NCBI GenBank assembly: GCA_038245905.1
Contig: JBBRRY010000004.1
Span: 64,001 to 128,000 of the forward strand
Length of the DNA stretch: 64,000 bases
Direction of reading: 5' to 3'
From: Thermoanaerobaculia bacterium
GTDB taxonomy: Bacteria > Acidobacteriota > Thermoanaerobaculia > UBA5066
Part shown: piece after piece, positions 2,660-52,103 of the stretch
How positions within the stretch are numbered: position 1 is the first letter of the stretch
How the letters are laid out: each line of letters opens with the position of its first letter
Translations under genes and position numbers: made by a program
Notes under the pieces: model-generated
Told to the model about the DNA's origin: nothing
Database searches by the model: none
Seen by the model: only the letters and a program-made list of their open reading frames with translations

Positions 2660-3063
2660 TTCACCCCTCCGTCCCTCTTCCTTCTAAGAAATCCCAGACT
2701 GCGTTCCACGCGACCCATCGCATCCTCGTTCGTCGCGCCGAGCGTGACCGCAAGGCTCGCGTAGCGCATCGCGCCCCCCTCCAGGTCCTTCTCGCGCTCG
2801 CCTCGCGCGAGCGCGGGCGGCTTCTCGGCGACGAACGTCCCTTCGCCTCGCTTTACGTCGAGAACCCCGGCGTCTACGAGGCGCTGGTAGCCCTTTGCGA
2901 CGGTCGCGGGGTTGATCGACAGGTCGCGAGCGAGGTCACGCACCGAAGGCATGACAGAGCCGGGCTTCATCGCTCCCGACGCCACGAGCCGCCGTACGTT
3001 GTCCTCGATCTGCCGCCAGAGGGGGACGGCGTCGGAGGGGTCGACCTGCAGTCCGCGAGTCAT
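2656..3063 (-). CDS. GntR-family transcriptional regulator (YtrA subfamily)
   Basis: PLWRQI...MPSVRDLARDLSINPATVAKGYQRL...RGEGTFV winged HTH with a short C-terminus; first gene of an ABC operon. Confidence 0.93.
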   Translation of the reverse strand: MTRGLQVDPSDAVPLWRQIEDNVRRLVASGAMKPGSVMPSVRDLARDLSINPATVAKGYQRLVDAGVLDVKRGEGTFVAEKPPALARGEREKDLEGGAMRYASLAVTLGATNEDAMGRVERSLGFLRRKRDGGVK

Positions 3064-3074
3064 CCCTTACCGCC

Positions 3075-3125
3075 TCGGTGTATCATTACACCGATACAGT
3101 ACGGACGCCGACGCCTTCCTGTCAA
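3075..3125 (-). promoter_or_regulatory. sigma70-type promoter and palindromic operator for the GntR-ABC operon
   Basis: Minus strand TTGACA (3120-3125), 18 nt spacer, TACTGT (3096-3101), then inverted repeat TCGGTGTA-N4-TACACCGA (3075-3094). Confidence 0.7.
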
Positions 3126-3158
3126 GGGTTTCGCGCGAATTAAATCAAACGGGCCGGG

Positions 3159-4035: not shown

Positions 4036-4782
4036 TCAGGGCTTGTGCGCGACGAGGTAGTGGTCCATCCGGTCGGCGCGCCGCTGGACGTCCGCCAGGC
4101 CTTCGGCGGCAAGCCAGGCCTCGACGTCGGAAAGGGCGTATCGCTCGTGGACGCCCGGCGAGACGGTGTCGAAGTACTCGAGGATCTCGCCGGGCGGCGC
4201 CACGGCGCGGAGGGCCTCGACCTTCTCGGGAAAAGTAAGGGGTGCGACGCGCGCCCGCCAGGCCTCGACGCCGGCGACCTCCTGCTCGTCAGTCGGACAG
4301 CCCGGCCTTGGCCGGCCGTAGAGCATCAGGAAGAGGACGCCTCCGCGGCGGAGGGAGGCCACCAGCCGCGCGAGCGAACCGCGGACGTCGCCGGTGTGGT
4401 GAAGCACCCCGAAGCTCCAGACAAGGTCGAAGGACGCGCCCACGGCCAGCGGGGCGAGGAGGTCCGCGGCGAGCGCCCCGCGGAAACCGGGGAGGCCCGT
4501 GCAGGCCGCCCGCGTCGCCAGGAGGGCGGGGAGCGAGCGGTCGACCGCGAGGACACGCGCCCCGAGCCGGCAGAGCGCCCAGGTGTGACGGCCGCATCCG
4601 CAGCCCGCGTCGAGCGCGTCGCGCCCCGCGAACCACTCCGGAGGCCGGCCGACCCACTCGGCCACGAGCCCGGGCAGCTCCTCGCGGAACTCCGGGCTCG
4701 CGAGCGACCACCGGTTCTGGGGGAGCCGCGACCACTGGTAGTCGAAGCTCGCGCGCGTCTGGAGGACGTCCAGATCGGTCAT
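4036..4782 (-). CDS. class I SAM-dependent methyltransferase
   Basis: Motif I LDAGCGCGR, AVDRS, FDLVWSFGVLHHT, LRRGG. Start ATG 4782 chosen because it lies 19 nt after the precursor stop. Confidence 0.88.
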   Translation of the reverse strand: MTDLDVLQTRASFDYQWSRLPQNRWSLASPEFREELPGLVAEWVGRPPEWFAGRDALDAGCGCGRHTWALCRLGARVLAVDRSLPALLATRAACTGLPGFRGALAADLLAPLAVGASFDLVWSFGVLHHTGDVRGSLARLVASLRRGGVLFLMLYGRPRPGCPTDEQEVAGVEAWRARVAPLTFPEKVEALRAVAPPGEILEYFDTVSPGVHERYALSDVEAWLAAEGLADVQRRADRMDHYLVAHKP

Positions 4783-4801
4783 CGCGGCGTCGGCGGGGAG
4801 G

Positions 4802-5164
4802 TCAGCCGTGGCCGAGCTGCTTGTTCGGACCGGCGAAGCCGCCGCCGAGCTGCTGCGCGCCACCGAGCTGCTGCATGCCTCCGAGCTGGGCGCCTCCGAG
4901 CTGCTGGTGGCTCATGCCGCCCGCCACCTTGTCGAGGTCCTGGTCGACGAGCTCACCGCCAGGGAGAGGCGGCAGAACGAAATGGCGCGTGCCCGCCGTG
5001 TCCTCGACGAAGCGCACGCTCACGCCCTCCGAAAGCCGGATTCCGACCCCGGCGAGCGCCTCGTGCGGCGCGGAGAGGAGGCGGGCGCGAAACGCGGGGT
5101 CCGATGCCGCCTTCGATTCGATGGACGCGAGCGCTTCGGGGGAGATCACGTCACGAAGGCCCAT
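4802..5164 (-). CDS. NHLP (nitrile hydratase-like leader) RiPP precursor with (Q)QLGG-repeat core
   Basis: KAASDPAFRARLLSAPHEAL...VRFVEDT...HFVLPPLP..ELVDQDLDKVAGG leader; strong RBS AAGGAGG; 37-aa core after GG. Confidence 0.88.
   Translation of the reverse strand: MGLRDVISPEALASIESKAASDPAFRARLLSAPHEALAGVGIRLSEGVSVRFVEDTAGTRHFVLPPLPGGELVDQDLDKVAGGMSHQQLGGAQLGGMQQLGGAQQLGGGFAGPNKQLGHG
4811..4906 (-). repeat. imperfect tandem repeat CAGCAGCTCGGNGGC encoding (Q)QLGG
   Basis: Four QLGG units plus a terminal QLG(H)G, visible on the plus strand as repeated CCGAGCTG(CTG). Confidence 0.8.
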
Positions 5165-9819: not shown

Positions 9820-11237
9820 GCGTCTTCTACGAGAAATTCGAACGCCACGCCGGCGGCGCCGGGTTGAAGGGCCATGCCACCCACTACTGCCCCGGCTGCG
9901 GCCACGGGCTCGTGCACAAATTCCTGGCCGAGGCCATCGAGGAGCTTGGGATCCAGGACCGGACCGTCGCGATTTCGCCGGTCGGCTGCTCGGTCTTCCT
10001 CTACTACTACTTCGACGTCGGCAATTCGCAGGCGGCGCACGGGCGCGCGCCCGCTGTCGCGCTCGGACACAAGTACGCGAACCCGAATGCCGTCGTCATC
10101 AGCTATCAGGGCGACGGCGACCTCGCCTCCATCGGGCTCGCGGAAATCGTCTCGGCCGCGCAGCTCGGAACGCCCTTGACCGTGATCTTCGTGAACAACG
10201 CGATCTACGGCATGACGGGCGGCCAGATGGCCCCGACGACGCTCATGGGCCAGAAGAGCGCCACGAGCCCGGAGGGCCGCACCGCGCTGATGGGCCAGCC
10301 GATGAAGATGGCGGAGCTCATCGCGGGTCTCGACGGCCCGGTGTACGTCGAAAGGGTCGCCCTCTTCGACGCGAAGCAGCGCATGAAGGCGAAGAAAGCC
10401 GTTCTCAAGGCCGTGAAGATCCAGGCCGAGAACCGCGGGCTCGCGTTCGTCGAGGTGCTCGCCGAGTGCCCGACGCACCTCGGGATGACGCCTGAGGCCA
10501 CGGAGACCTGGGTGAAGGAGAAGATGGTTCCGGTCTTCCCGCTCGGCGTGAAGAAGGACACGGTTCCGGAGCCCTGGTTTCACCTCGAGAAGCCCCGCTT
10601 CGACGCCGACAGCCTCCTCGCGGCCGTCGGGGCCTCGGCCGAGCGCCCGCCGCGGTTCGCGACGGGATTTCCGAAGCACCTCGGCGGCACCGACATCGCC
10701 CTGAAGCTCGCGGGCGCGGGGGGCGACGGCGCGCAGACGGCCGCGATGCTTCTCACCCGCGCGGCCATCCACGAGGGGTACGACGCGACGCACATTCCGA
10801 GCTACGGGCCCGAGTCGCGTGGCGGCACGTCCTACGCCGACGTTCACGTGAGCGCGGACGAGGTGCTCTCGCCGGCCTCGCCGCATCCCTGGATCCTGGT
10901 GGCGTTCAATGCCCCGAGTCTCGCGAAGTTCGCACCGGACGTGCCGCCCGGCGGCACGATTCTCTACGACAGCTCCGTGGTGAAGAACCCACCGGCGTTC
11001 CCGGACGGCGTCCGCGTGTTCGGCGTGCCGTTCACGGAGATCGCGGTCGACCTCGGCAAGGCGATGGTGAAGAACATCGTCGCCCTCGGCGCGCTCCAGG
11101 CCGCGACGAACCTCTTTCCGGAGGAGACGTTCCGCACCGCTTTCCGCCTCGCCTTGAAGGACAAATGCGCTCTGATTCCCTTGAACGAAGAGGCCTTCTC
11201 GTGGGGCATGCGCTCCGTCCAGCCGCCCGCGAACTGA
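9816..11237 (+). CDS. 2-oxoacid:ferredoxin oxidoreductase beta-gamma fusion
   Basis: YCPGCGH, TPP motif GDGD...NN, YGMTGGQ; gamma domain AGAGGDG, SYGPESRGG, KNIVALGA. Confidence 0.92.
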   Translation: MSVFYEKFERHAGGAGLKGHATHYCPGCGHGLVHKFLAEAIEELGIQDRTVAISPVGCSVFLYYYFDVGNSQAAHGRAPAVALGHKYANPNAVVISYQGDGDLASIGLAEIVSAAQLGTPLTVIFVNNAIYGMTGGQMAPTTLMGQKSATSPEGRTALMGQPMKMAELIAGLDGPVYVERVALFDAKQRMKAKKAVLKAVKIQAENRGLAFVEVLAECPTHLGMTPEATETWVKEKMVPVFPLGVKKDTVPEPWFHLEKPRFDADSLLAAVGASAERPPRFATGFPKHLGGTDIALKLAGAGGDGAQTAAMLLTRAAIHEGYDATHIPSYGPESRGGTSYADVHVSADEVLSPASPHPWILVAFNAPSLAKFAPDVPPGGTILYDSSVVKNPPAFPDGVRVFGVPFTEIAVDLGKAMVKNIVALGALQAATNLFPEETFRTAFRLALKDKCALIPLNEEAFSWGMRSVQPPAN

Positions 11238-11253
11238 GCCAAGGAGAGACGCC

Positions 11254-11529
11254 ATGAACCAGGATCTGATCCCGGTTTCGCTGACTCAAGCCGAGTACCG
11301 CATGCTCATGGGCCTACGGGACGTGCCCGAGTCGTCGCTGAAGACGCGGGTCAAGGCCCTCATCGAGGCTCTCCTGTCGATGGCGCGGGAGCCGCGCTGC
11401 CCCGAGCAGCAGTCCGACGGCGTGCCCTGCGTCAGCGTGCACGCGAACTGCGACCAGTGCGTCGAGGTCACGCGCATGCTCGACGGCCTCGAGGCGATGG
11501 AACTGCAGATCCGCGGCTTTCCGGGATGA
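11254..11529 (+). CDS. small Cys-containing hypothetical protein
   Basis: RBS AAGGAG; C-x9-C-x6-CxxC; stop overlaps the next ATG. Confidence 0.7.
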   Translation: MNQDLIPVSLTQAEYRMLMGLRDVPESSLKTRVKALIEALLSMAREPRCPEQQSDGVPCVSVHANCDQCVEVTRMLDGLEAMELQIRGFPG

Positions 11530-13754
11530 GCGGAAGCGGTCCGGATGGCCGGACGTCTCTTCTCGAGCACGAGGTGTACGCGCTCCTCGCGGGCGCGGGA
11601 TTCGACGTTCCGCGGCATGTCTTCTGGGAAGGAGCGCCGGAAGAGATTTCGGAGGAGATAAAAGATTTCTTAGAAGGGTTGGGAGCGGAGGAGGTCGTAC
11701 TCAAGATCGCCTCGCCCGATCTCGCCCACAAGTCGGACGTCGGAGGGCTTTCATTTTCTAAGAACATGCCCCTTTCCGTCGCCGTTGCTGCGAGGAGGAT
11801 GTGGGACGACGTCGGCCGCCGCGCGCCTGGCGCGCAGCGAACCGGGATCCTCGTCGTCGAGAAGCTCGTGCCGGCGACCGGCGCGCCGGCCGCCGAGGCG
11901 CTTCTCTCGTACCGGAACGACCCGGCATTCGGGCCGGTGCTCGTCTTCGGCCTCGGAGGACTTCTCACTGAGTGGTACGGCGAGATGGCGCCGGGCAATA
12001 CGACTGTGATTCTGAGACCCGGAGAGGTGAAGCGGGGCCTCCAGGCCGCCGCGCAGGAGCAGGCGGCGCTTAGGATTTTCTTTGAAGGTAGTAGAGCCCA
12101 CGCGCAGGCGCCCCTCGTGTTGGAGACGGTTGCCGGTCTGCTCGAAAACCTTTCTAAGAATCTTTCTCTTTCTTTCTCCCCCTCGAACTCTCTCGGCAAT
12201 CTGACTCTCGAAGAGCTGGAGGTGAATCCTCTGCTCCTCTGCGAAGGCGGCCGGTGGGTGGCCGCCGACGGCAAGGCGCGCTTCTCAACCCGTCGCTTCG
12301 TCGAGTCATCGCGGCCTCTCGAGAAGATCGAGAAGCTCCTCGCCCCGAAGAGCGCGGTCGTGTTCGGAGCCTCCGCGAACGACATGAACCCGGGGCGCAT
12401 CATTCTGCGAAACCTGAAGGCGTCCGAGACGATCGCTTACGGCGGCCTCCGCACCGTGCATCCGCGTGCCGAGACGATCGAGGGCGTGCCGTGCCTCCGG
12501 AAGGCCTCGGACCTCGAGGGCCCGGTCGACCTCGCGGTCGTCGCGATCCCGGCCGCCGGCGCACGCGACGCCGTCCGGGATCTCTGTGCGGGGGACCTCG
12601 CGCGCGCGATCATCCTGATCCCGGGCGGGTTCTCGGAAACAGGGGACCGCGTCCTCGAGGACGAGATGAAGCTGGCCCTCGCGGAATCGCGGAAACTGCC
12701 TTCCCGAGGCCCCGTTCTCGTGGGTGGAAACTGCCTCGGGGTCGTCTCGAAACACGCCTACAACACCTTCTTCCTCCCGCAGTACAAGCTCCCGTTCCAC
12801 GATGCGCCGGGGGACCGCCTTGTCGCCGTGAGCCAGAGCGGCGCGTACCTCGTGTCTCTCACGAGCAATCTCGACGGTATCGTGTTCCCGCGCGCGTCGA
12901 TTTCCTACGGCAACCAGATCGACCTAACGGCGGCCGACTTTCTCGAGTACTTCGAGATGGACCCATCCGTCCGGGTCTTCGCCTTCTACGTCGAGGGCTT
13001 CCTGCCGCTCGACGGCGCGCGCTTCGCGGCCATCGCGCGGCGGCTCACGGCCGCGGGCCGGCACGTGCTCGTCTACAAGGCGGGCCGCACGCCTCTCGGC
13101 GCGCGGGCGGCCGAGAGCCACACGGCGTCCCTCGCCGGCGACTGGGAGGTCGCCCGGGCGCTGCTCGAGGGCGCGGGTGCGGTCGTGGCGGTCACGCTCG
13201 ACATGTTCGAGGACAACACGAAGATCTTCACGATGCTCGCGGACCGGCTTCCGTCGGGGCGGCGGCTCGCGGTCCTCTCGAACGCCGGCTTCGAATGCGG
13301 GGCCGTGCTCGACCGCCTGTACGCGCTCACGCCCGCGGCGCTCTCCCCCGGGACGAAAGCGCGCCTCGAGGCCTGCCTCCCCGCGATCGCGCACGCGGAC
13401 AACCCCGTCGACGCGACGCCAATGGCCGACACGGCCGCGTTCGTCGCCGCGGCCGAGGCGCTGCTCGAGGACCCCGGAGTAGACGCGCTGATCGTCTCGC
13501 CGATTCCGGTTACTCCGGCGCTCGACGACCTCGCGCCCGATCTCTCGGGTTCGCACGGGGAGAACATCTACTCTCCGGGCTCGCTGGCGCAGGAGCTTCT
13601 GCGTCTCTTCCGCGCGACGGCCAAGCCGGTCGTCGTGAACGTGGATTCCGGCCGCCTCTACGATGACTTCGTCGGCGTGCTGCAACGCGGCGGGATCCCC
13701 GTCTACCGGAAGATCGACCGTGCTTCGCGCGCGCTCTCGGCGCTCTGCTCCTGA
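11526..13754 (+). CDS. ADP-forming acyl-CoA (acetate-CoA) ligase, single chain, ATP-grasp domain first
   Basis: VLKIASPDLAHKSDVGG, DPAFGPVLVFGLGG, EVNPL; then AVVFGAS, GGNCLG, SQSGA, SHTASLAG, NPVD. Confidence 0.9.
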   Translation: MSGSGPDGRTSLLEHEVYALLAGAGFDVPRHVFWEGAPEEISEEIKDFLEGLGAEEVVLKIASPDLAHKSDVGGLSFSKNMPLSVAVAARRMWDDVGRRAPGAQRTGILVVEKLVPATGAPAAEALLSYRNDPAFGPVLVFGLGGLLTEWYGEMAPGNTTVILRPGEVKRGLQAAAQEQAALRIFFEGSRAHAQAPLVLETVAGLLENLSKNLSLSFSPSNSLGNLTLEELEVNPLLLCEGGRWVAADGKARFSTRRFVESSRPLEKIEKLLAPKSAVVFGASANDMNPGRIILRNLKASETIAYGGLRTVHPRAETIEGVPCLRKASDLEGPVDLAVVAIPAAGARDAVRDLCAGDLARAIILIPGGFSETGDRVLEDEMKLALAESRKLPSRGPVLVGGNCLGVVSKHAYNTFFLPQYKLPFHDAPGDRLVAVSQSGAYLVSLTSNLDGIVFPRASISYGNQIDLTAADFLEYFEMDPSVRVFAFYVEGFLPLDGARFAAIARRLTAAGRHVLVYKAGRTPLGARAAESHTASLAGDWEVARALLEGAGAVVAVTLDMFEDNTKIFTMLADRLPSGRRLAVLSNAGFECGAVLDRLYALTPAALSPGTKARLEACLPAIAHADNPVDATPMADTAAFVAAAEALLEDPGVDALIVSPIPVTPALDDLAPDLSGSHGENIYSPGSLAQELLRLFRATAKPVVVNVDSGRLYDDFVGVLQRGGIPVYRKIDRASRALSALCS

Positions 13755-15718: not shown

Positions 15719-16525
15719 TCACGTAAGGTTGCTTTTCTTAGAAGGTGAAGAGAGCAGGGCGGCGGCGCTCTCTTCCTTTCTAAGCAAATTTTCAATTCTT
15801 TCGGCGTCCTCGATCGTATCCACGCCGATCGAATCCGACACCGCGTCCAGAACCGCCATCGCCATCCCGGCCGCGAGCGCGCGGAGCTGCTCGAGGCCCT
15901 CCGCCCGTTCGAGGGGATGCGGCGGGAGACTCGTCCACCTTCTCAAGGCTTCTTTCCGATAGCCGTAAAGCCCGAGGTGCTTGAGTGTCGCGAGGCCCGG
16001 CTCGGCCCGCCGGCGATAGGGGAGAGGCGACCTCGAGAAGTACAGGGCGCGCCCGTCGTCTCCGCGCACGACCTTGACGTTGTTGGGGTTCGCGATCTCG
16101 TTCGGGTCACGGATGGGCAGCGCGACAGTCGCGAGCGGAAAGTCGGGATGGTCGAGGAGGAATCCCGCCACCCGGTCGATGTTCTCGGGATCCATCATCG
16201 GCTCGTCGCCCTGCACGTTCAGGACGACGGTCACGTCGAGGTCCTTTACGGCGGCGAAGACCCGGTCGGTTCCCGAAGGCAGGGCGGGATCGGTCATCAC
16301 GGCCCTTCCGCCCGCGGACTCGACGACCCGGGCGATCCGCTCGTCGTCCGTCGCGACGAGAACGAGCGAGACGCGCTTCGCCTTAAGGGCCCTCTCGAGG
16401 ACTCTCACGACCATCGGAATCCCGGCGATCGGATGGAGAGGTTTTCCTGGAAAGCGCTCCGCCCCGTAGCGGGAGGGGATGACGGCGACCGAGGAGAGGG
16501 GAGTGTTGGTCGCCAGCCGGTGCAC
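15719..16525 (-). CDS. kdsB: 3-deoxy-manno-octulosonate cytidylyltransferase (CMP-KDO synthetase)
   Basis: IPSRYGAERFPGKPL, SGTDR, NVQGDEP, ALYFSRS, LEQLRAL. Start uncertain: GTG 16525 or ATG 16540. Confidence 0.95.
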   Translation of the reverse strand: MHRLATNTPLSSVAVIPSRYGAERFPGKPLHPIAGIPMVVRVLERALKAKRVSLVLVATDDERIARVVESAGGRAVMTDPALPSGTDRVFAAVKDLDVTVVLNVQGDEPMMDPENIDRVAGFLLDHPDFPLATVALPIRDPNEIANPNNVKVVRGDDGRALYFSRSPLPYRRRAEPGLATLKHLGLYGYRKEALRRWTSLPPHPLERAEGLEQLRALAAGMAMAVLDAVSDSIGVDTIEDAERIENLLRKEESAAALLSSPSKKSNLT

Positions 16526-19650: not shown

Positions 19651-19675
19651 CTTCTAAGAAGCTCTTCTCTTTCTT

Positions 19676-25893: not shown

Positions 25894-25919
25894 TTGGTCT
25901 CCTTCAAGAAGAGAGGCGG

Positions 25920-28724: not shown

Positions 28725-28783
28725 CCTTTTCGAAAGCCCCGCCTCGCAATCGCCGGAGCCGCGGCGCCCGTACAATCTCGGGA

Positions 28784-33969: not shown

Positions 33970-35334
33970 TTACGCGGAAGGGGGTTTCGGGAGGCCGAAT
34001 TTCTCGATACGATAGCGGATCTGGTCGCGATTGAGGCCGAGGAGCCGCCCGGCCTGCGTCTGGTTGCCCGCGCTTCGCTTCAGAGCCTGAACCACGAGCG
34101 ATCGTTCGAGCTGTTCGACGTCGAGGCCGCCCGGAGGAAGCTGGAAGCTCGGGGAGAGCGCGGCCAGAGGCGTCAGGAGGACGTCGCTCCGCTCAAGAAT
34201 CTCGCCCTCCGAAAGCAGGACGGCCCGCTCCAGGACGTTCCGGAGCTCCCGGATGTTGCCCGGCCACGGATAGGCGTCGAGCGCATCGCGCGCGTCCGGC
34301 GCGAGACCGCGCACGTTCTTCTTGAACTCGCGGTTGAAGCCGTCGACGAAATGATTCGCGAGGAGCGGCACGTCGCCCTTCCGCTCGCGCAGCGGCGGCA
34401 ACGGAACGGGGAGAACGCGGAGGCGATAGTAGAGATCCTCGCGAAATCGTCCCTCGCGAACCCCGTCTTCGAGATTGCGATTCGTCGCCGCGATGACGCG
34501 CACGTCGACGCGCACGTCTGCCGAGCCCCCGACGCGCCGGAAAGCCTTCTCCTCCAGGAAGCGGAGGAGCTTGGCCTGCAATGCGGGCGCCATCTCGCCG
34601 ATCTCGTCGAGGAAGGCGGTGCCTGCGTCGGCCTGCTCGAGAAGGCCCTTCTTCTGCCCCTTGGCATCGGTAAAGGCGCCCCTTTCGTGGCCGAAGAGCT
34701 CGCTCTCGAGAAGCGTGTCGGGAATCGCCGAGCAGGTGATGTTCAGGAAGGGACCGGTGCGGCGCTCGCTCGCGAAGTGAATCGCCTTGGCCGCGAGGTC
34801 CTTGCCCGTGCCGCTCTCACCGGTCAGGAGAACGGTCGAGGACGGACTTGCCGCGACCTTTCGGAGAAGCGCCTTCACCTCGAGCATCAACGGGGATTCG
34901 CCCACGATGCGGTCGAAGCCGTAGGGCGCGGACTCGCGGGCGCGCAGCGTGCGCACCTCACGGCGAAGTTGGGTCGTCTCGAGCGCCTTCTCGACGAGAG
35001 CGAGCATCTCGTCGAGGTCGAACGGCTTGTTCACGTAGTGAAAGGCGCCTCGCTTGATGGCGTCGATGGCACTCGAGACGCTCGCGTAAGCGGTCATCAG
35101 GATGACGACGGCTTCCGGATTGCGCTCCTTGATTTTCGGGATCAGCGTGACGCCGTCGGTATCAGGCAGGCGGAAGTCGAGGATGACGAGATCGACGTCC
35201 TCCCCGCAGCGCTCCAGGGCTTCGGCGCCGTCCTCGGCCTCCAGGACCCGGTATCCGGCGGCCTGCAAGCGCTCCTTCAGCGACCAGCGGATCAGCTTCT
35301 CGTCGTCGACGATGAGGATCCGCGGCGATGCCAT
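33970..35334 (-). CDS. sigma54-dependent response regulator (NtrC/AtoC family)
   Basis: REC domain, [33 protein letters not shown], Fis-type HTH. Confidence 0.96.
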
Positions 35335-35344
35335 GGCCGGAATT

Positions 35345-35755
35345 CTAGACGGGCGAGGGTGGCGCGGCTCCCGCCGGAGGAAGCGTGGAGCCCACGAGGC
35401 TGATCATGCGGTCGAAATCGAACGGTTTCGTGATGAAGTGCGCCGCGCCGAGGGAGGTCGCCCGCTCGGCCGTGCCGGGCGAATCGTAAGCCGTCATGAC
35501 GATGACCGGACATGCCGGGCGCGAACCCTTGACGCGCTCGAGGACACCGAGGCCGTCCAGCTCGGGCAGCGAGAGATCGAGCAGCATCAGGTCAACGGGG
35601 TTCCCCGCGAAGACGGCGACGGCCTCGAGTCCGGTCTCGGCCTCGAGGACCGTGTACCCCGCGGCGAGGAGACGCTCGCGCAGGGACCAACGGATGAGGC
35701 TTTCGTCGTCGACGACGAGGACGACCGGTTTGAGAGAGCTCGCCCCGGCGTTCAC
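35345..35755 (-). CDS. single-domain response regulator
   Basis: VLVVDDE, LLDLSLP, MTA, KPFD; RBS GGAGG. Confidence 0.9.
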
Positions 35756-35772
35756 GGGTATCCTCCGCGGAG

Positions 35773-37248
35773 GTGGAAGAGCGGGGCGCGGGAGGCCGGC
35801 CTCCGGGCGAGGAGCTGGCGGACATCGTGTACGCCCTCGACCAGTCCGCGATCGTCGCCCGCACGGACCAGCGCGGAATCATCGACTACGTCAACGAGAA
35901 GTTCTGCGAAATCTCGAAGTACTCCCGCGACGAGCTGCTCGGGCAGGACCACCGCATCATCAACTCGGGGTACCACTCCAGGGCGTTCATCGCGGAGCTC
36001 TGGCGCACGATCGCGGGCGGCCGCGTGTGGCGGGGCGAGATGCGCAACCGCGCCAAGGACGGGAGCATCTACTGGGTCGACACGACGATCGTTCCCTTCC
36101 CGGACGCGGATGGGAAGCCCCACCGATACCTCGCGATTCGCGCGGACATCACGGCCCGGAAACGCGCCGAGGATGAGCTGAGGCGCGCGGCGGCCATCAT
36201 CGAGAGCTCGGACGACGCGATCATCGGGAAGACGCTCGACGGCACGATCACGACGTGGAGCGCCGGAGCGGCGAGGATCTACGGCTGGACGCGCGAGGAG
36301 ATCCTGGGCGAGCCTGTCACGCGCATCCTGGCGGCGGACCGGACGGACGAGTTCCGGGGCCTGCTCGAGAGGATCGGGCGCGGCGAACGCGTGGTTCACT
36401 TCGAGACGCGCCGGCTCCGGCGCGATGGGACCGAGTTCGACGTCTCGCTCACGCTGTCGGCCGTGAGGGACGACTCCGGGAAGATCGTCGGCGCCTCGGC
36501 CGTCGAGCGCGACGTGTCCGAACAGCGCCGCGTCGAGGCCGAGCTCCGGGAGCAGGCGGCACTCGCGCGCCTCGGCGAGATGGCGGCCATCGTCGCCCAC
36601 GAGGTCAAGAATCCCCTCGCCGGAATCGGCGGCGCCCTGCAGATCATTCGGGATCGCATGCCTGCCGAGAGCTCCGATCGGCAGATCATCGCGGAAATCC
36701 TCGCGAGGCTGGACGGCCTGAACACGCTCGTACGCGACCTTCTCGTGTTCTCTCACCCGCGTGCGCCCCAGCTGGCGCCGATGCTCATCCTGCCTCTTCT
36801 GGAGGAAGTCGCGGCCGAGATTCGCCGCGATCCCGGTTTGCGCGGTCTCCGGATCGAGATCGAGGGAGACAGCCGCCCGATCCGGGGCGACGTGGCTCTC
36901 CTCCGAAGCGTCTTCTTCAACCTCGCGATGAACGGGGCGCAGGCCGCGGGGCGGAAGGGCACGGTGCGTGTCGTCGTGGCCTCTCGCGAGGGGATCTGCG
37001 AGGTTCGGGTCATCGACACGGGGCCGGGCATCCGGGAGGAAATTCGAGGCAAGATCTTCGATCCCTTCTTCACGACGAAACATCGAGGCAGCGGGCTCGG
37101 CCTCCCGGTCGTGAAACGCGTCGTGGAGGCTCACGGGGGCGAAATCGCCGTGACGTGCCCACCGGAGGGAGGCACCGTGGCGACCGTGCGCCTGCCCCTC
37201 GATGAATCGACTTCCGGGAGCGGCCGGGGCGGAGGCCCCGGGGTCTGA
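35773..37248 (+). CDS. cytoplasmic two-PAS sensor histidine kinase
   Basis: Two PAS/PAC domains, H-box AHEVKNPL, N-box, DTGPG, FFTTK, GSGLGL; no TM segment. Confidence 0.95.
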   Translation: MEERGAGGRPPGEELADIVYALDQSAIVARTDQRGIIDYVNEKFCEISKYSRDELLGQDHRIINSGYHSRAFIAELWRTIAGGRVWRGEMRNRAKDGSIYWVDTTIVPFPDADGKPHRYLAIRADITARKRAEDELRRAAAIIESSDDAIIGKTLDGTITTWSAGAARIYGWTREEILGEPVTRILAADRTDEFRGLLERIGRGERVVHFETRRLRRDGTEFDVSLTLSAVRDDSGKIVGASAVERDVSEQRRVEAELREQAALARLGEMAAIVAHEVKNPLAGIGGALQIIRDRMPAESSDRQIIAEILARLDGLNTLVRDLLVFSHPRAPQLAPMLILPLLEEVAAEIRRDPGLRGLRIEIEGDSRPIRGDVALLRSVFFNLAMNGAQAAGRKGTVRVVVASREGICEVRVIDTGPGIREEIRGKIFDPFFTTKHRGSGLGLPVVKRVVEAHGGEIAVTCPPEGGTVATVRLPLDESTSGSGRGGGPGV

Positions 37249-37264
37249 GGTCGCGGCGAGAAGC

Positions 37265-37822
37265 TCATCCGCCTGCGGCGATCGCCTCGGCGGCGAAATG
37301 GGGAAGAGTTCGAGCCGGGTTGGCCCAGCGCGGCTCCTGCCGGTCGACCCATCCGCGTCGCAGCGCGAGCGCGACGAGCTCGACCTGGCTGTGAACTTCC
37401 AGCCGGCGAAGGGCGTTCTGGATGTGATTGCGCACGGTCGCGTGGGACAGGTTCAGGCGGGCCGCGATGTTGAGAGCCGCGTAGCCATCGGCGAGGAGCG
37501 CGACGACTTCGTGCTCACGTTTCGACAGCGGGCACGAGGTCATGAGAGCTGAGGTGCCGCGCAGGAGGTAGATCGTTCTCTCGCCGCGCGGCCCCGGCCC
37601 CGGGATCTTCAGAAGGGTAGCTCCCGCGATCGTGTCCAGCACGCCGCGCGAGAGGAGGGCCGTCAGATCGCACCCGATCAAGGCGTCCTCGTGAACGCCC
37701 AGCATGCGTTCCGCGCCGGGGTTCATGTAGACGATTCTGTTCCTCCCGTCGGTGGCGAATGCGGGCGGCTCATTGGCGGGCGAAACTCTCGGAAGGCCAG
37801 CGGCTTCAGGGGTCATGTTCAT
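37265..37822 (-). CDS. LuxR-type HTH regulator with N-terminal PAS-like segment
   Basis: LSKREHEVVALLADG...IAARLNLSHATVRNHI; RBS AGGAG before ATG 37822. Confidence 0.85.
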   Translation of the reverse strand: MNMTPEAAGLPRVSPANEPPAFATDGRNRIVYMNPGAERMLGVHEDALIGCDLTALLSRGVLDTIAGATLLKIPGPGPRGERTIYLLRGTSALMTSCPLSKREHEVVALLADGYAALNIAARLNLSHATVRNHIQNALRRLEVHSQVELVALALRRGWVDRQEPRWANPARTLPHFAAEAIAAGG

Positions 37823-38376: not shown

Positions 38377-38381
38377 GCCCC

Positions 38382-46470: not shown

Positions 46471-48426
46471 CTACTCCACCCGGCTGAGGTCTACGAGCCT
46501 CGAGTTCTTGCCCTGGAAGGCCATCCATTCCGGGTGGCGATCCAGGATCGGGCCGAGCCGACGCGAAAGAGCCGAGAGCTCCCACGGGAATCTGGTGTCG
46601 AGCAGGTAATCGAATCCGCGGGCTCGAAAAGCTCCGAGGATCTGTACTTCGGACGCGGCACTCGAGACTTCCTGCCGCCAGAGCCGATCCAGCGACAGGT
46701 CGTCCGTCGCGGCGGAGACGTCGTGTCCGAGCATGTAATAGATCTCGTTGTCGCCGGTCGTCACGATGCGCGCGGACCTCGGCACGTTCGTCGCGATCCA
46801 CAGCTTCGCGTCTCCAGCCGAGTGCTCCAGGAGCGCGCGCTGGAGGGGAAGATCCCGGGCCCGGTCGAGGACCGCTTCCGGTGCCAGCCGGGAGGTTGCG
46901 ACGACGGCGCCGAGGACGACGAGGCCGCTGGGCAGCAGGCGGAACGCCCGCACGCGTCTCGAGAGAAACCGCAATACGAGCAGCGAGAGGAGGGTCCCGG
47001 ACACGTTCAGAAGGACGAGGCCGGGACCCAGCAGGCGGAACTGCGTTCCTGGCCTCGCGACGACGAGGAAGCAGAGAAGGCTTCCGAGGGCGACAAAGAA
47101 CAGCAGGAAGCACCGCCGGCGAAACGCGAAGCTCCTTGCCGGAGCGAAGAGGCCGCGCACGAGAAAGAGGGGGATTGCGAGGGCGACGATGGCGAGCGTT
47201 CCTTCGTGCGCCAGACCCCCGAGTCGTTCCAGTCTCCAGGCGACGTGATCGTCTCGCAGCGACGGTGCCATCCCGTAGATGATTTCGCGCTGGCTGTTGC
47301 TCAGGGTGGTGAGAGGCGTGGCCCCGAGCGCGAGAGGATAGATAGCGCTTCCGGTGCCTCGGAGATTCCGGGCGAGAAGGGGAGTGGCGGCCAGCAGAAC
47401 TCCCAGAAGCACACTTGCCGCGGCCGACGGGACTCTCCTGGGGGCGTCGAGGAACTGATACACGAGCCAGCCGAGAAGCAGCGGCAGCAGGGTGAATGCG
47501 ACCGTGTACTTGGCAACGAACGCGGCGCCGAGGAAGACACCCGCCGCGACGTTCCTCCTCCACGAGCTTCGTACTCCCGACAGGAGGACGGCCCCGCACA
47601 GCAGCCATGCGGCCGCGCCGCAGTCGTTCTTCGCGAGAACGCCGTACCGCCATAGGGAAGAGGTCGCGAGGGCGGCAAACCCGCCGATGAGCGAAACCGC
47701 GGGAGGGAACCGAAGCCGTTGCAAGAGAGCGATGACCGCGAGCCCGATGGCGACCCAACCCAGTGTCAGGTGCGTCCACTGCGCGAAGATCTGGATCGCC
47801 GGGAGGCCGGCCTCGCCTTTCCCGAGGAAGAACTGTGCCGGCCAGAGATACAGGTACTCCCAGAGAGAAGCCTGGAAGTTCAGCGGATGCTGCGGGTCGA
47901 ATGCGATCGTTCCGCTGCGCAGCCAGAGGACCGGCGCGACGAGGTGATAGTAAAGCGGGTCGCCATGCCGTGCGAGATGCGTGGATTGAACGAAGCGAAG
48001 GCCGCAGTACGAGGCCAGGAGAGCGGTCAAGACGGCATGTCGTCGCGCGCGCGGCACGGGCGGAGCGCTCGGGAGCATGGCGAAAGAAAGGACACCGCCC
48101 AGGAGAAACGCGTTCGATGAGATGGGACCGTGAATACCGGCGACCAAGGTTAGGTAGGCCCACCACGCCGCGAAGAGGCTCCCAAGGCCCAGCGTCACGG
48201 CCCAGGCCTCCGCCCCGCGAAGGGCGTCCGGCGACGAGAGTCCGATCAGCCGGCTCGCCGCCCGTCCCCAGCCGGCTATCGCAATAACCCAGAACAGAAA
48301 AATGAGGAACAGGCCGAGCAGGCTCCTGAGACCGAAATCCTCCGTGGTCGAGGTGGGCACGTATCCGCCCACGGCGGCGAACCCCACCGCCGAAAAAGCC
48401 AGGGCTACCAAGATGCGGTTCTGCAA
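46471..48426 (-). CDS. polytopic membrane protein, probable GT-C-fold glycosyltransferase
   Basis: Many TM segments, DPLYYHL and KND motifs; follows a WcaJ-like gene. Start uncertain. Confidence 0.65.
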   Translation of the reverse strand: MQNRILVALAFSAVGFAAVGGYVPTSTTEDFGLRSLLGLFLIFLFWVIAIAGWGRAASRLIGLSSPDALRGAEAWAVTLGLGSLFAAWWAYLTLVAGIHGPISSNAFLLGGVLSFAMLPSAPPVPRARRHAVLTALLASYCGLRFVQSTHLARHGDPLYYHLVAPVLWLRSGTIAFDPQHPLNFQASLWEYLYLWPAQFFLGKGEAGLPAIQIFAQWTHLTLGWVAIGLAVIALLQRLRFPPAVSLIGGFAALATSSLWRYGVLAKNDCGAAAWLLCGAVLLSGVRSSWRRNVAAGVFLGAAFVAKYTVAFTLLPLLLGWLVYQFLDAPRRVPSAAASVLLGVLLAATPLLARNLRGTGSAIYPLALGATPLTTLSNSQREIIYGMAPSLRDDHVAWRLERLGGLAHEGTLAIVALAIPLFLVRGLFAPARSFAFRRRCFLLFFVALGSLLCFLVVARPGTQFRLLGPGLVLLNVSGTLLSLLVLRFLSRRVRAFRLLPSGLVVLGAVVATSRLAPEAVLDRARDLPLQRALLEHSAGDAKLWIATNVPRSARIVTTGDNEIYYMLGHDVSAATDDLSLDRLWRQEVSSAASEVQILGAFRARGFDYLLDTRFPWELSALSRRLGPILDRHPEWMAFQGKNSRLVDLSRVE

Positions 48427-48478: not shown

Positions 48479-49879
48479 TCAGTACGCGTTCTTGTGGGTA
48501 AAGCCCCACTTGACCGTGAGCCACAGGATCTTCACGTCGAGGCCGAACGACCAGTTCTCGATGTAGTAGAGGTCGTACTCGATGCGCTTCGAGAGGCTCG
48601 TGTTGCCGCGCCAGCCGTGCACCTGCGCCCAGCCCGTGATGCCGGCGCGGACCCGGTGGCGGAGCATGTACTGGGGGAACTTGTCCCGGAACGTGCTCAC
48701 GAACTCCGGGCGCTCCGGACGGGGACCCACGAGAGACATCTCGCCCGTGAAGACGTTCACGAGCTGCGGCAGCTCGTCGAGCGAGGTCTTGCGCAGGAAT
48801 GCGCCGACATGCGTGCGGCGCGCGTCGTTCTCTTCGGCCCAGCGCGCGCCGTCGTTTTCGGCGTCGACGCGCATCGAGCGGAACTTCAACATCCGGAAGA
48901 GCCGCCCGTCGAGGCCCATGCGCTCCTGCGCGTAGAAGATCGGGCCGCGGTCTTCGAGCCAGATCGCGAGCGCGATGACCGGGAAGAGAACGGCGATCGC
49001 GACGAGGCCGAGGGCCGAGAGTGCGACGTCCATCGTGCGCTTCACGAGGGAATTCCAGCCCTCGAGCGGCATCTGGGTCAGGTTGATGACGGGCAGGCCG
49101 TCGAAGTCCTCGACTCCGGCCTTGAACGTCACGTACTGGAAAAGGTCGGGCACGACCTTCAGGTCGACCATCTCGTTGCCCACGTCCTTGAGGATCGTGA
49201 GCATCGTGCGGTGGGCCTCGACGGGCAGAGCGAGAAAGACCGTATCGACATCGTGGGCCCGGATCAGCGCCGTGACCTCCGCGGTGACGCCGAGGACCGC
49301 GAGTCCCCGATAGCCGTCCGCGCGCTTCGCGGGGTCGTCGTCCGCGAAGCCGACGGGTTTGAGGCCGGTCGCGGGATGGTCGAGCAGCTTGTCGGCGAGC
49401 GCGCGCCCGGTGTGTCCCGCGCCCACGATGAGCGTCCGGCGCACGCCGGCGCCCGTCGACCACATGTTCTCGAGGTATTTGCGGATCCCGAAGCGCACGA
49501 GCGAGACGAAGAGGACATCCAGGACGAGAAAAAGGACGAGCATCTGGCGGCTCGTGTACGTGAAGCCTCGCCAGAAGGAAAGAAGGCCGACGAGCAGGAT
49601 CGTCCCGAGGGACGCCGCGACGATGACGGCGAGCACTTCGTCGATGGTCGAGCGGTCGCGGCGGATCTGATACAGCCGGTGGAAGTAGAAAACGACTGGC
49701 CAGATCGCGATGAGGATCGGGATGAACGCGACGTAATTCTCGAAAGGCTGCGCGCCTTTCGGTGTCGGCCAGACCGACTCGAAGCGGATGAGCCACGCCG
49801 CACCCAGCGCGAGCACGGTCGCGAGGACGTCGGCGGCCACGAAGAGGGCTTGAAGACGGCGGGTCTGGCGGCGAATCAC
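48479..49879 (-). CDS. undecaprenyl-phosphate sugar phosphotransferase (WcaJ-like)
   Basis: KFRSM, SLDELPQL, MSLVGPRPE, GITGWAQV, DLYYIENWS. Confidence 0.95.
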   Translation of the reverse strand: MIRRQTRRLQALFVAADVLATVLALGAAWLIRFESVWPTPKGAQPFENYVAFIPILIAIWPVVFYFHRLYQIRRDRSTIDEVLAVIVAASLGTILLVGLLSFWRGFTYTSRQMLVLFLVLDVLFVSLVRFGIRKYLENMWSTGAGVRRTLIVGAGHTGRALADKLLDHPATGLKPVGFADDDPAKRADGYRGLAVLGVTAEVTALIRAHDVDTVFLALPVEAHRTMLTILKDVGNEMVDLKVVPDLFQYVTFKAGVEDFDGLPVINLTQMPLEGWNSLVKRTMDVALSALGLVAIAVLFPVIALAIWLEDRGPIFYAQERMGLDGRLFRMLKFRSMRVDAENDGARWAEENDARRTHVGAFLRKTSLDELPQLVNVFTGEMSLVGPRPERPEFVSTFRDKFPQYMLRHRVRAGITGWAQVHGWRGNTSLSKRIEYDLYYIENWSFGLDVKILWLTVKWGFTHKNAY

Positions 49880-51012
49880 ACGGGCTCCGGAGCGTCGATT
49901 CTAGCGTTCTCGGGCTCGTTTCCGGCCCGGCTCCTCGCCCTCCCGAGGGCGGCGAGGAAACGGCTTCGAAAAACGTCCCGCGAGAAACGGGACGCGTTCC
50001 GGGTCAGGGCGACGGGATCGAGCGTCAGGCCGCGCAGCCGGTCGAGCGCCGTCAGGAGGCCCGTCGCGCCCGGCGAGTCGTACAGGACACCTGTCTCTCC
50101 GTCCCGGACGGTCTCCTTCGCCCCGCCGCGGCCGAGCGCCACGACCGGCGCGCCGCACGCCTGCGCCTCCAGCGGCACGATGCCGAAATCTTCCTCTCCG
50201 GGCATCAGGACGGCCTCGGCGGTCCGGTAGCACGCGCGCAGCATGTCGTCCTCTGGAGTGTCGAGGAATCGGACCGTCTCACCGGCCCGGGCGGCGAGGC
50301 GCGCGCGCTCGGGCCCGAACCCCGCGATCGTGAGGGGCAGCCGGCGGGTGTTCGCGGCGTCGATCGCGTCCTCGAGGCGCTTGTATGGCGCGAGGGCCGA
50401 CACGACGAGGAGACCGTTCCGGAGCGAACCGGGCGGCGGCGGCGTGTAGAAACCGGTGTCGACGGGCGGGAAGACCACCTCCGCCTCGCGCCCCCAGAGG
50501 CGGGCGATGCGTCCCCTCACGTTCTCCGAGTTCGCGAGAAAGGCGTCGACGCGAGGCACGGCCGCGCGATCCCATGCCCGGAGCGGTCCGCGAACGAGCC
50601 GCGCGGCCGCGGTCACGAGGGCCGGCCGGCCCCGGAAGTAGTCGTCGAACTGATCGTGGAGATAGCGGACCGGCGTGTGGCAGTAGCAGAGATGAAACGC
50701 GCCCGGAGCCTTCTTCGCGTTCTTGGCGACGCAGTGGGAGGTCGAGATTACGAGCTCGAAGTCCGACAGGTCCCATGTCTCGGCGGCGACGAAGAAGAGG
50801 GGGAGCAGCTTGCGGTAGTTGGCGCGCGGCGAGACGAGCTTCTGGAGGAACGTAGTCCGGATTTCGGCGGCCTCGATCTCCGGGGCCTGCGAACCCTTGA
50901 AGTGAAAAAGCGTGAAGACGGGCGCGCCGGGGAACATCCGCACCAGCTCGAGCAGTACCTTCTCGCCGCCGCGGGTGCCCGTCAGCCAGTCGTGGACGAG
51001 GGCGACCCTCAC
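49876..51012 (-). CDS. GT4 glycosyltransferase
   Basis: VALVHDWLTGTRGGEKVL, EDFGIVPLEAQACG; GTG 51012 overlaps the upstream stop. Confidence 0.93.
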   Translation of the reverse strand: MRVALVHDWLTGTRGGEKVLLELVRMFPGAPVFTLFHFKGSQAPEIEAAEIRTTFLQKLVSPRANYRKLLPLFFVAAETWDLSDFELVISTSHCVAKNAKKAPGAFHLCYCHTPVRYLHDQFDDYFRGRPALVTAAARLVRGPLRAWDRAAVPRVDAFLANSENVRGRIARLWGREAEVVFPPVDTGFYTPPPPGSLRNGLLVVSALAPYKRLEDAIDAANTRRLPLTIAGFGPERARLAARAGETVRFLDTPEDDMLRACYRTAEAVLMPGEEDFGIVPLEAQACGAPVVALGRGGAKETVRDGETGVLYDSPGATGLLTALDRLRGLTLDPVALTRNASRFSRDVFRSRFLAALGRARSRAGNEPENARIDAPEPV

Positions 51013-52103
51013 GACGAAAGCCTCGGTTTTTCGGAGGAGAGATTTTCTTTGAATGGAAAGAGAACGCCGTCGTAGATACCTGCCGTTCGTTCTGCGACGC
51101 GGGCCCACGTGAATTGCGCTACCCGGTCCCTCCCCCTTTTTCTAAGCAAATCTCTCCTCTCTTCATCTCCGAGCAGAATCTCCAACGCTGCGGCCATCGA
51201 ACCGATGTCGTGCGGGTCGAAGAAAACCGCCGCGTCGCCCGCCGCCTCGCGGAGCGCCGGGAGGTCCGAGCATGCCACGGGCGTGCCGGCCGCCTGCGCT
51301 TCGAGGACGGGCAGGCCGAAGCCCTCGGCGAAGGAGGGTTGGACGAGAACGCGGGCGCCCGCGACGAGCGCCGGCACGTCCTCGTCGGGCACCCAGCCGA
51401 GAGCCTTCGCGCCCGCGGGCAGCGTCCGGCCGGGGCCAACACCCGCGAGGACGAGAGACAGCGAAGGCGTCGAAACGCGGAGACGCGCGAATGCGGCAAG
51501 CAGCCCGTCAAGGTTCTTGTGCGGCTTGTCGTTCCCGAGGAAGAGAAGATAGGACTCGGACGAAGATCCCCCCCCCCTCCCCCTTTCAAAGAAATCTTCT
51601 CTTACGCCGTAGGGAAGGACCACGACCTTGCCTTCCCGCTCGGGTCCGAAAGCAAGAATTTCCCTCTTCGTCTCCTCGGACCCCGCGATGACCGCCGCCG
51701 ACAGGCGGAGTGCGCGTCCCACCATCCAGCGCGCGTACGCCCGCTTCGCGAGCGCCCCGTGCTCGGGCCTCGTGAGGTGCATGAGGTCGTGGATGGTGAC
51801 GACCGTCGCCTTCGGCGGAAAGAACGGAACGACATAGTGCGGGGCATGGAAGAGATCAGGCTGAATCGCCGAGATCGCCCGCCTCACGGCGACCAGCTCC
51901 CCGAAGGAGTAATGGGGAGCGTCGCAGATCCTCGCGAGTACGCCCGTCGGAAGAAGAGCCTCCTCGCCGGGGAGCACGAGCGCATGAAGCTCGTAGCGGT
52001 CGAGCCCGGCGAGGCCGCCGAGGAGGCCGCGGATGTAAGTCCCGATCCCGAAGTCGCGCGCCTTGCGGGCGTCGACGAGGACCCGTTTCCTTCGTCCGGT
52101 CAA
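51009..52103 (-). CDS. GT4 glycosyltransferase
   Basis: DARKARDFGIGTY, VTIHDL, KPHKN, EGFGLPVLEAQAAG; TTG 52103 overlaps the upstream stop. Confidence 0.9.
   Translation of the reverse strand: MTGRRKRVLVDARKARDFGIGTYIRGLLGGLAGLDRYELHALVLPGEEALLPTGVLARICDAPHYSFGELVAVRRAISAIQPDLFHAPHYVVPFFPPKATVVTIHDLMHLTRPEHGALAKRAYARWMVGRALRLSAAVIAGSEETKREILAFGPEREGKVVVLPYGVREDFFERGRGGGSSSESYLLFLGNDKPHKNLDGLLAAFARLRVSTPSLSLVLAGVGPGRTLPAGAKALGWVPDEDVPALVAGARVLVQPSFAEGFGLPVLEAQAAGTPVACSDLPALREAAGDAAVFFDPHDIGSMAAALEILLGDEERRDLLRKRGRDRVAQFTWARVAERTAGIYDGVLFPFKENLSSEKPRLSS

Follow-up and report, generated by a model that had tools for sequence, protein, structure and literature searches.

Rickettsia palindromic elements (RPEs) form a repeat family that is translated within many unrelated proteins, its members being insertions of 100-150 bp. 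Uptake sequences (uptake signal sequences, USS, and DNA uptake sequences, DUS) are described by Findlay and Redfield as arising by mutation, perfect copies from imperfect ones, and as residing in genes, and at residues, of low conservation under a drive about as strong as codon selection (PMC2817400); inverted intergenic copies by gene ends are a known feature of these sequences (PMC2346458). Inverted-repeat doublets of about 70-120 bp are the hallmark of REPINs, the singlets of which look like decayed doublets (PMC3116915), and intragenic invertons consist of inverted repeats that fall wholly inside genes and enclose tens to hundreds of bp, for which Chanin et al. expect a shared repeat 'grammar' (bioRxiv 10.1101/2023.03.11.532203). 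Here we describe a nine-nucleotide word, TTCWAAGAA, and the inverted pairs that it forms, in a 64,000-nucleotide (nt) stretch of the genome of a Thermoanaerobaculia bacterium (Acidobacteriota; GenBank assembly GCA_038245905.1, contig JBBRRY010000004.1, positions 64,001 to 128,000), hereafter the window, in which positions are counted from the first nucleotide. The motif fails the defining features of REPINs, of RPEs and of single-site uptake sequences. An earlier note on the window, made from its letters alone, had listed copies of the word and proposed that they are maintained at DNA level.

Abundance and composition of the word

The source assembly (coded G000, as other genomes are coded G followed by a number) comprises 3,797,265 bp in 113 contigs at 67.8% GC, and the window corresponds to C4:64001-128000 in the contig coding used here. 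Genes were called with a codon log-odds model trained on long open reading frames (ORFs) with high GC content at third codon positions (GC3), giving 3,254 genes that cover 93.5% of the assembly; the caller is crude, so gene boundaries and assignments to coding sequence (CDS) or intergenic DNA are approximate. The window holds 14 copies of TTCWAAGAA against 0.15 expected and a maximum of 2 in 100 dinucleotide-preserving shuffles, a density about threefold the genome mean of 4.5 per 64 kb. Across the whole assembly there are 268 copies (149 of TTCTAAGAA and 119 of TTCAAAGAA), and the word and its overlapping neighbours have the highest counts of all 9-mers with at least seven A/T positions. Called CDS contain 198 of the 268, 100 in sense and 98 in antisense orientation, in every frame that stays open and with an even distribution along gene length.

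This excess persists against codon-aware backgrounds. Synonymous codons were shuffled within each gene, which keeps the protein and also the rare codons contributed by the motif itself, and the CDS of the genome then held 12.7 copies (standard deviation 3.5, maximum 20, 20 shuffles) in place of the 198 observed; shuffling of codon order gave 7.2 (maximum 12, 20 shuffles), for an overall enrichment of 15- to 28-fold. Within the CDS of the window, 11 copies were observed against 0.53 and 0.18, respectively, with a maximum of 2 over 200 shuffles of each kind. Since both nulls fall far below the observed counts, the absence of codon-aware enrichment that the earlier note had named as grounds for giving up its proposal was not encountered. 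Its 14 positions were all recovered, as were both copies of the variant TTCTAAGCA that it had placed at 15778 and 51140, and its description of an over-represented word with agreeing flanks, located mostly in CDSs in differing frames, holds across the genome.

When the 268 copies were aligned, the resulting logo was asymmetric, being pyrimidine-rich from about -18, followed by C(C/A)CC, the core, A, T or A, and a second pyrimidine-rich stretch to about +27; position -2 is C in 94% of copies, and position +9 is A in 73%. The unit of about 36 nt, a core word within pyrimidine-rich flanks (consensus CCTTCWAAGAAA), is referred to as an arm. Its 9-nt core is palindromic about the centre (TTCT-A-AGAA). 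Intergenic arms and arms in CDS share one logo, and the loose definition of the flanks is therefore no concession to coding; together with the use of all open frames and both strands and with the codon-aware nulls, this supports the proposed maintenance at DNA level. In proteins the motif encodes recurrent peptides, such as SKKSS, FLEGE and ISLKGE. A Shine-Dalgarno or promoter reading of the purine-rich strand was considered by eye and dropped because copies are even along genes and no start codon lies at a fixed distance.

An artefact of assembly or polishing, a concern that the earlier note had itself raised, or of binning is exceedingly improbable, and no point in its support was found. Logan contigs of the probable source run cover arms with 0 differences (e.g. 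11445-12623, 25865-28435 and 28647-30036), and two pairs are covered (11000-11956 and 25601-26671) by contigs that a second study obtained from a strain diverging by a few percent. The same paired word is moreover present in all 18 of the other genus genomes and in a genome of the sister genus (G165), and it recurs at orthologous positions.

Arms form inverted pairs of fixed polarity

A position weight matrix (PWM) was built from the 268 copies, and a threshold of more than 22 bits gave 470 non-overlapping arms genome-wide. Neighbouring arms were classed as -+ (a minus-strand arm followed by a plus-strand arm, with CC sides facing) or as +- (the opposite order). Adjacent arms lay no more than 300 nt apart in 120 of 147 -+ cases and in 4 of 138 +- cases. 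With the partner threshold relaxed to more than 10 bits and applied to 462 arms, an inverted partner 26-300 nt away was found on the CC side of 343 arms and on the tail side of 12. A pair therefore reads, on either strand, as a purine-rich tail, TTTCTTWGAAGG, an interior, CCTTCWAAGAAA and a pyrimidine-rich tail, and the functional unit would be two inverted arms with their CC sides facing across 30-300 bp. The copies that had been treated as independent single sites are thus mostly halves of such pairs. In six syntenic 64-kb regions of the genus, -+ pairs numbered 5, 4, 3, 2, 5 and 0, and +- pairs 0 in all six. The window holds five strong pairs at 22 bits and six by eye, the sixth being seen by eye alone because arm 11756 scores 21.7, in addition to a probable weak pair, 2567/2682.

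Ninety of the 120 pairs lie in a single gene and 17 wholly between genes; a further pair spans two genes, and the other 12 are mixed. Spacing has a broad peak at 70-140 nt, with a median of 76 nt for intergenic and 116 nt for genic pairs (p = 0.0015), so that arms stand closer together where coding imposes no constraint; no helical periodicity of 10-11 nt and no mod-3 preference was found among the 120 pairs. Pyrimidine skew and AT excess extend about 100 nt outward from each arm, and the interior is at the genome baseline. A second motif and a conserved spacer were looked for in pair interiors and neither was found, the only feature being a mild excess of GC-rich words.

Tests of structure, RNA function and strand

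Partner-specific complementarity was absent from the 120 pairs (z -0.02 to 1.4), and also from the 90 within-gene and the 16-28 intergenic pairs taken separately (overall z -1.3 to 1.5). Partner cores were alike at 7.87 of 9 positions, against 7.80 for random pairs of arms, and in the outer flanks of the 90 within-gene pairs, read as sense RNA, G-U combinations (338) were not in excess of A-C combinations (353), with Watson-Crick pairs at 771 of 2250 positions. Co-evolving RNA or DNA hairpins were rejected on this lack of partner co-variation and of a G-U excess; arms look as if each matched a consensus independently, and not like halves of a co-evolving helix. H-DNA, or a mirror-repeat triplex, was likewise rejected, as there is no arm-specific mirror symmetry (z -1.7 to 0.9).

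Some features of the pairs would nevertheless suit a signal read in RNA, in which a purine-rich arm on the 5' side and a pyrimidine-rich one on the 3' side would make a bidirectional terminator, an attenuator or an RNase entry site that is latent within genes, where translation would mask it. With the fixed polarity, a U/C-rich tail follows the second arm whichever strand is transcribed, which a bidirectional terminator would require. Intergenic pairs are enriched in convergent spacers, which make up 10% of intergenic bases and hold 8 of 29 pairs, and depleted in divergent ones (5 of 29 on 35%), their cores pair with each other in minimum-free-energy folds, and the tight pair 15735-15786 is predicted to form a hairpin (RNA fold -27.9 kcal/mol, z -2.72). 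The missing partner-specific complementarity in every pair class, the G-U counts given above, the 60-140-nt loops that most pairs would have, the five pairs in divergent spacers, whose arms need not share a transcript, and the lack of any Rfam match in the window (0 hits) all argue against it, and as an account of the motif as a whole it appears improbable. A stem followed by a U tract, as in intrinsic terminators, fits tight intergenic pairs such as 15735-15786 and the enrichment in convergent spacers and misfits the 90 within-gene pairs, and a role in termination or processing is plausible for the tight intergenic subset only.

Strand bias was assessed on single arms, since paired arms are symmetric by construction. 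There were 56 plus and 66 minus arms where GC skew was above 0 and 44 plus and 64 minus arms where it was below 0 (p = 0.5), and no bias relative to GC skew or to gene strand was found in G000. For this reason a polar signal akin to FtsK-orienting polar sequences (KOPS) or Chi is not supported as a form of the chromosome-organisation site that the earlier note had entertained. The 3.9-Mb contig G011:C1 has runs of like-strand copies of the extended 12-mer CCTTCTAAGAAA, e.g. 15 consecutive plus copies at 2.20-2.55 Mb (runs test p = 0.03, weak); G000 has no like-strand neighbour bias (77 same, 82 different).

Comparison with intragenic invertons

The pairs could also be invertons, their interiors of 30-300 bp being flipped by a site-specific recombinase so that the host gene is recoded or truncated in part of the population. 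Strand exchange normally requires identical crossover regions, yet the cores of the two partners are unequal in three of the six window pairs and, genome-wide, are no more alike than random arms. No flipped interior was seen in 14 orthologs of the synthetase gene described below or in the recA-upstream pair of three species, and among 15 contig joints listed (with 214 more beyond these) none lay at an arm or changed strand, although contigs drop rare variants. Serine recombinase genes (PF00239) are absent from G000 and G165 and number two in the motif-negative genome G072; tyrosine recombinases were not searched. Interiors include catalytic segments of housekeeping enzymes, among them the conserved ATP-grasp segment VVLKIASPDLAHKSDVGG flanked by pair 1, and spacing shows no mod-3 preference. 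What speaks for invertons is anatomy: inverted repeats of one consensus bracket short intragenic segments (90 of 120 pairs in one gene), which is their defining arrangement (bioRxiv 10.1101/2023.03.11.532203), the core is palindromic about its centre, and three of the four genic interiors of the window are free of stops when inverted in frame, the fourth having one, although this is near chance at 68% GC and four interiors are too small a sample to judge by. The motif differs from described intragenic invertons in that one consensus is common to about 120 pairs in housekeeping genes. We consider this explanation improbable, to much the same degree as the RNA-level one.

Origin, persistence and placement of arms

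The origin of arms is best seen in an ADP-forming acyl-CoA synthetase-like gene (11574-13754; Pfam ATP-grasp_5, CoA_binding_2 and Succ_CoA_lig), in which both pair 1 and pair 2 lie. When its orthologs from 14 species (70-87% protein identity) were aligned by codon, the four cores fell into identical columns, and no gap interrupted any core. All four arms are absent from G013, G009 and the outgroup G072, which have GC-rich codons instead; because this arm-less state is common to the three, it is ancestral, and the synthetase arms were written in by substitution. Likewise, arms of G165 align with GC-richer near-cognate words of G072, e.g. TTCGAAGAA for TTCTAAGAA. Arms thus originate mostly via point substitution at tolerant codons.

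Once present, arms persist. Eight in-gene arms of G004 and eight of G011 stand at G000 positions, and the two apparently unique arms of each match sub-threshold arms of G000. At third codon positions, A/T of G000 was kept in G004 at 26 of 41 sites in arms and at 470 of 2034 elsewhere (p ~1e-7), and in G011 at 26 of 42 and 413 of 1876, respectively (p ~1e-7), so that retention at synonymous arm sites is about three times background in two of the three species compared, which in these two further supports maintenance at DNA level. Identity over all positions is 0.59-0.81 in arms against 0.81-0.88 for the gene background, which places arms in fast-evolving parts of proteins. With arms masked, genes of the lowest codon score have 21.4 arms per 100 kb and those of the highest have 0.7, and with rising GC3 the density drops from 24.5 to 2.9 per 100 kb; arms thus become about 30-fold rarer as codon bias rises.

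A further possibility is that arms are remnants or copies of a miniature element of REPIN, RPE or miniature inverted-repeat transposable element (MITE) type, inserted in frame and mobilised in trans. Like RPEs, the motif is translated within many unrelated proteins; unlike them, most arms are in-place substitutions with an ancestral coding interior, the exceptions being 29299 and 51045, which lie in indels. Arm 51045 is part of a segment of about 27 nt that is absent from G013 and G011, and arm 29299 lies in a low-complexity, lineage-variable insertion where G013 lacks a 26-amino-acid segment. These two insertions, the patchy presence of the word among close relatives and its variable copy number are as a mobile element would have them. 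The inverted doublet itself, typically 70-120 bp across, and singlets that look like decayed doublets are common to the motif and to REPINs and bacterial interspersed mosaic elements (BIMEs; PMC3116915). Interiors, however, are native conserved coding sequence, cores are gapless in 14 species, motif-lacking relatives have near-cognate words, positions are common to species and not scattered, and there is no conserved spacer or second interior motif. The motif also differs from REPINs and BIMEs in being mostly intragenic (198 of 268 copies, whereas repetitive extragenic palindromic sequences are extragenic), in having host sequence as spacer and in lacking hairpin co-variation. An autonomous element with arms as terminal repeats was also sought, and no excess of -+ pairs at 1-3 kb was found. 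Y1/RAYT transposase genes (PF01797) number 0 in G000 and G001 and 3 in the motif-negative G072, and no reverse transcriptase genes were found in G000, G001 or G165; as cognate enzymes, RAYT, reverse transcriptase and serine recombinase were rejected, none tracking the presence of the motif. A mobile origin is accordingly the least probable of the biological alternatives weighed here.

Two side observations concern the synthetase gene. In G017 it looks mosaic, its first ~70 codons resembling the arm-less G013 and G009 and the remainder, including pair 2, resembling the arm-bearing species, a pattern that suggests interspecies recombination within the gene. The G165 ortholog (C1:1296313-1297695) matches residues 266-726 only and has 2 in-frame TGA codons, and may be a broken or rearranged gene.

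Taxonomic distribution

Each of the 18 other genomes of the genus examined has 45-210 copies of the 12-mer CCTTCTAAGAAA, and a reversed control word has at most 3. Among 201 genomes of the class, the exact 12-mer is abundant in the window genus (10 of 10 genomes plus G000, 45-138 copies), G165 of the sister genus has 16 copies, and every other genome has at most 4. By the exact 12-mer, the word is restricted to one genus plus one genome of its sister genus and is not class-wide in this sample, although related 'dialects' may exist. The 200 kb of G165 that were analysed hold it in the same polar pairs, and no comparable word was found in 200 kb of G021, which belongs to another family. Zero-match tallies in other families include G024, an unpublished genome on which no other result depends.

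In 200 kb of G022, from a third family, there are different arrays of AT-rich heptamers, arranged in inverted pairs with a separation of about 100 nt (e.g. at 81016/81108, 95211/95351 and 112878/112969). They resemble a series of heptamer-like units, of GGATTTC or GGATTCG type, at 25940-25975 of the window, beside the left arm of the pair upstream of recA, and may represent the phenomenon in another 'dialect'.

Interpretation

Because arms behave much as uptake sequences do in the picture of Findlay and Redfield, an uptake- or recombination-type signal was chosen as the preferred reading: by this analogy the pairs would be a lineage-specific, USS/DUS-like signal at DNA level that accumulates by drive, and we assign it a probability of about 0.3. 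Near-cognate words in tolerant codons and in spacers would mutate toward the consensus, and a weak directional force, of about the strength of codon selection, would then retain the arms. The force would most likely be either biased uptake or recombination of signal-carrying DNA (molecular drive) or selection for binding by a sequence-specific factor that engages both arms. The data themselves show over-representation, the geometry of the pairs, origin by substitution, persistence at orthologous positions, DNA-level retention of A/T in two of three species, avoidance of codon-biased genes and confinement to one lineage. From these we infer that a protein reads the arms, that it engages both together and that the force is a bias in uptake or recombination.

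The motif has several features in common with USS and DUS. Both are short words with extended flanks, specific to a lineage and present in hundreds of copies about equally on both strands, many of them genic; copies within genes originate through point mutations where constraint is weak and are traded off against codon selection, and inverted intergenic pairs occur near gene ends (PMC2346458). Differences are that the present word is AT-rich within a 68% GC genome, and that about three quarters of its arms stand in polar inverted pairs 30-300 nt apart, in genes as well, on one defined side, whereas the single copy is the functional unit of USS and DUS. Relative to these, the obligate paired geometry is new. 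The 'uptake-like sequence' of the earlier note is the closest known analogue in evolutionary behaviour.

Several observations weigh against an uptake- or recombination-type signal. Obligate polar intragenic pairing has no counterpart in the passages of PMC2346458 and PMC2817400 consulted, and at about 1 arm per 8 kb the motif is some tenfold less frequent than the counts given there. Its presence is patchy even within one coded genus, the word being absent from 200 kb of G072 and present in G165, a pattern not reported for USS or DUS. In the window region the closest relative, G013, has lost most arms, with 6 arms and no pairs left, and its retention of A/T does not differ significantly between arms (13 of 31) and other sites (606 of 1709). 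Density is very uneven, at 0.13-2.95 arms per 10 kb across the 25 largest contigs. Since arms 29299 and 51045 lie in lineage-variable indels, substitution is not the sole route by which arms arise. Genes for ComEC, DprA, ComEA-like proteins and secretin are present, and equally so in the motif-negative relatives tested, so they do not discriminate; no candidate reader protein was identified.

Much of the same evidence bears on a second explanation, in which arms would be sites of a lineage-specific architectural or topological DNA-binding protein, e.g. a nucleoid-associated or topoisomerase-recruiting one, that is cooperative on two inverted sites and whose sites are selected in the host. BIMEs, which bind gyrase and IHF, provide the model. 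Strict pair polarity, an arm-wise consensus without helix co-variation, the compositional footprint that reaches about 100 nt outward and leaves the interior at baseline, the tighter intergenic spacing and the persistence of arms at orthologous positions would all suit such sites. Rigid looping would, however, predict the helical phasing that is missing from the 120 pairs, and the uneven density, a 12-mer copy number that varies from 45 to 210 among species of one genus, and wholesale loss in G013 and absence in G072 with no replacement word in sight fit it poorly, as do the 198 of 268 copies that are genic although spacers would be cheaper and the lack of a candidate protein. We regard an architectural site as unlikely, though as the weightiest of the alternatives to an uptake- or recombination-type signal; invertons and an RNA-level signal follow, then a miniature mobile element, and the remaining weight falls to explanations outside this list.

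No description of the motif, or of obligately paired intragenic signal words, was found in the literature searched (supplements not covered). Searches with four core strings returned only STAT sites, primers and the like, and searches on Thermoanaerobaculia repeats, Acidobacteria uptake sequences and intragenic inverted pairs found no description of it. There is a real chance that the motif is a new kind of system. More specifically, it is possible, though less likely than not, that the pairs constitute a kind of intragenic DNA signal that has not been described before, in which two asymmetric sites with tails outward bracket any 30-300 bp and are read together by one lineage-specific machine, e.g. 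as a mark of self DNA that serves an uptake, recombination or defence nuclease system, or as the sites of a genome-wide set of intragenic invertons. Such a machine would be gained and lost between close relatives and would rewrite hundreds of housekeeping-gene codons where present.

A role in uptake or recombination, if correct, would make the pairs the first known signal system of this type outside Proteobacteria, found in uncultured Acidobacteriota, and would indicate that a signal of this type may have two parts. Should they instead serve protein binding or be sites of recombination, each genome would offer one factor about 120 loci, a set the size of a regulon. In either case a force at DNA level reshapes the protein sequences of ordinary enzymes and is strong enough to compete with codon selection. 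The contrast between the motif-positive G165 and the motif-negative G072 offers a comparative route to the reader gene. The host is a GC-rich soil or sediment bacterium.

Sites and neighbouring genes in the window

Coordinates, strands and gene contexts of the window sites are given in Table 1.

Table 1. Arms and arm pairs in the window, with cores, PWM scores in bits and gene context
Feature	Left or only arm	Right arm	Core	PWM	Context
Arm, variant core	111-119 (+)		CTCCAAGAA	25.8	Expected partner left of the window start
Weak arm, probable partner of 2682, 115 nt off	2567-2575 (-)		CTCGAAGAA	18.3	In ABC-ATPase gene (Pfam ABC_tran); same word and position in G004, G013 and G011
Arm	2682-2690 (+)		TTCTAAGAA		3' end of GntR-family gene, 23 nt upstream of ABC-ATPase start codon
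Pair 1	11667-11675 (-)	11756-11764 (+)			In ADP-forming acyl-CoA synthetase-like gene
Pair 2, long pyrimidine tail past right arm	12078-12086 (-)	12152-12160 (+)			Same synthetase-like gene as pair 1
Tight pair	15735-15743 (-)	15778-15786 (+)	TTCTAAGCA (right)		3' end of cytidylyltransferase (CTP_transf_3) gene
Strong arm	19652-19660 (+)			39.3	Between PurH-like stop and LolA-like start
Weak arm, exact core, poor flanks	24339-24347 (+)			18.9	In 992-aa gene without Pfam match
Intergenic pair	25976-25984 (-)	26052-26060 (+)			Divergent spacer, 83-167 nt upstream of recA start codon
Wide pair	29299-29307 (-)	29537-29545 (+)			In nucleotidyl-transferase (GMP-like) gene
Pair	51045-51053 (-)	51140-51148 (+)	TTCTAAGCA (right)		3' end of GT4 glycosyltransferase gene
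Arm	51585-51593 (+)		TTCAAAGAA	37.1	Same GT4 glycosyltransferase gene as pair 51045/51140

Conservation of these sites varies among the syntenic regions of G004, G011 and G013. Arm 2682 is retained in G004 and G011 and degenerate in G013. For the pair upstream of recA, G004 and G011 have both arms and the same orientation of the interior, and a deletion has removed the left arm from G013. The tight pair 15735-15786 is degenerate in G004 and absent from G013 and G011, and at arm 24339 the orthologs have cores with one or two mismatches at the same position. Arm 51585, which has no strong partner, is kept in G013 and has the variant core TTCGAAGAA (motif strand) in G004; for arm 19652 no partner was detected.

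The 992-aa ORF (21829-24807, minus strand) has a strong coding score and 68-82% identity in G004, G013 and G011, but at E <= 0.001 no Pfam family matches it. The syntenic regions of these three genomes hold no orthologs of the called genes at 4036-5164 and 46471-48426, and orthologs of those at 33970-37822 occur in G004 alone; all are likely accessory insertions. They are without any arm, against about 1.6 expected by length, a difference that is not significant. The recA gene occupies 24808-25893 on the minus strand (Pfam RecA, E 7e-141). In the nucleotidyl-transferase gene (28784-29881) a hypervariable insertion rich in Glu, Lys and Gly ranges from 0 to 26 aa across four species; G004 and G011 have other arm-like insertions at the position of arm 29299, and the insertion consists largely of arm-like purine-rich sequence, with two tandem arm-like units in G011.

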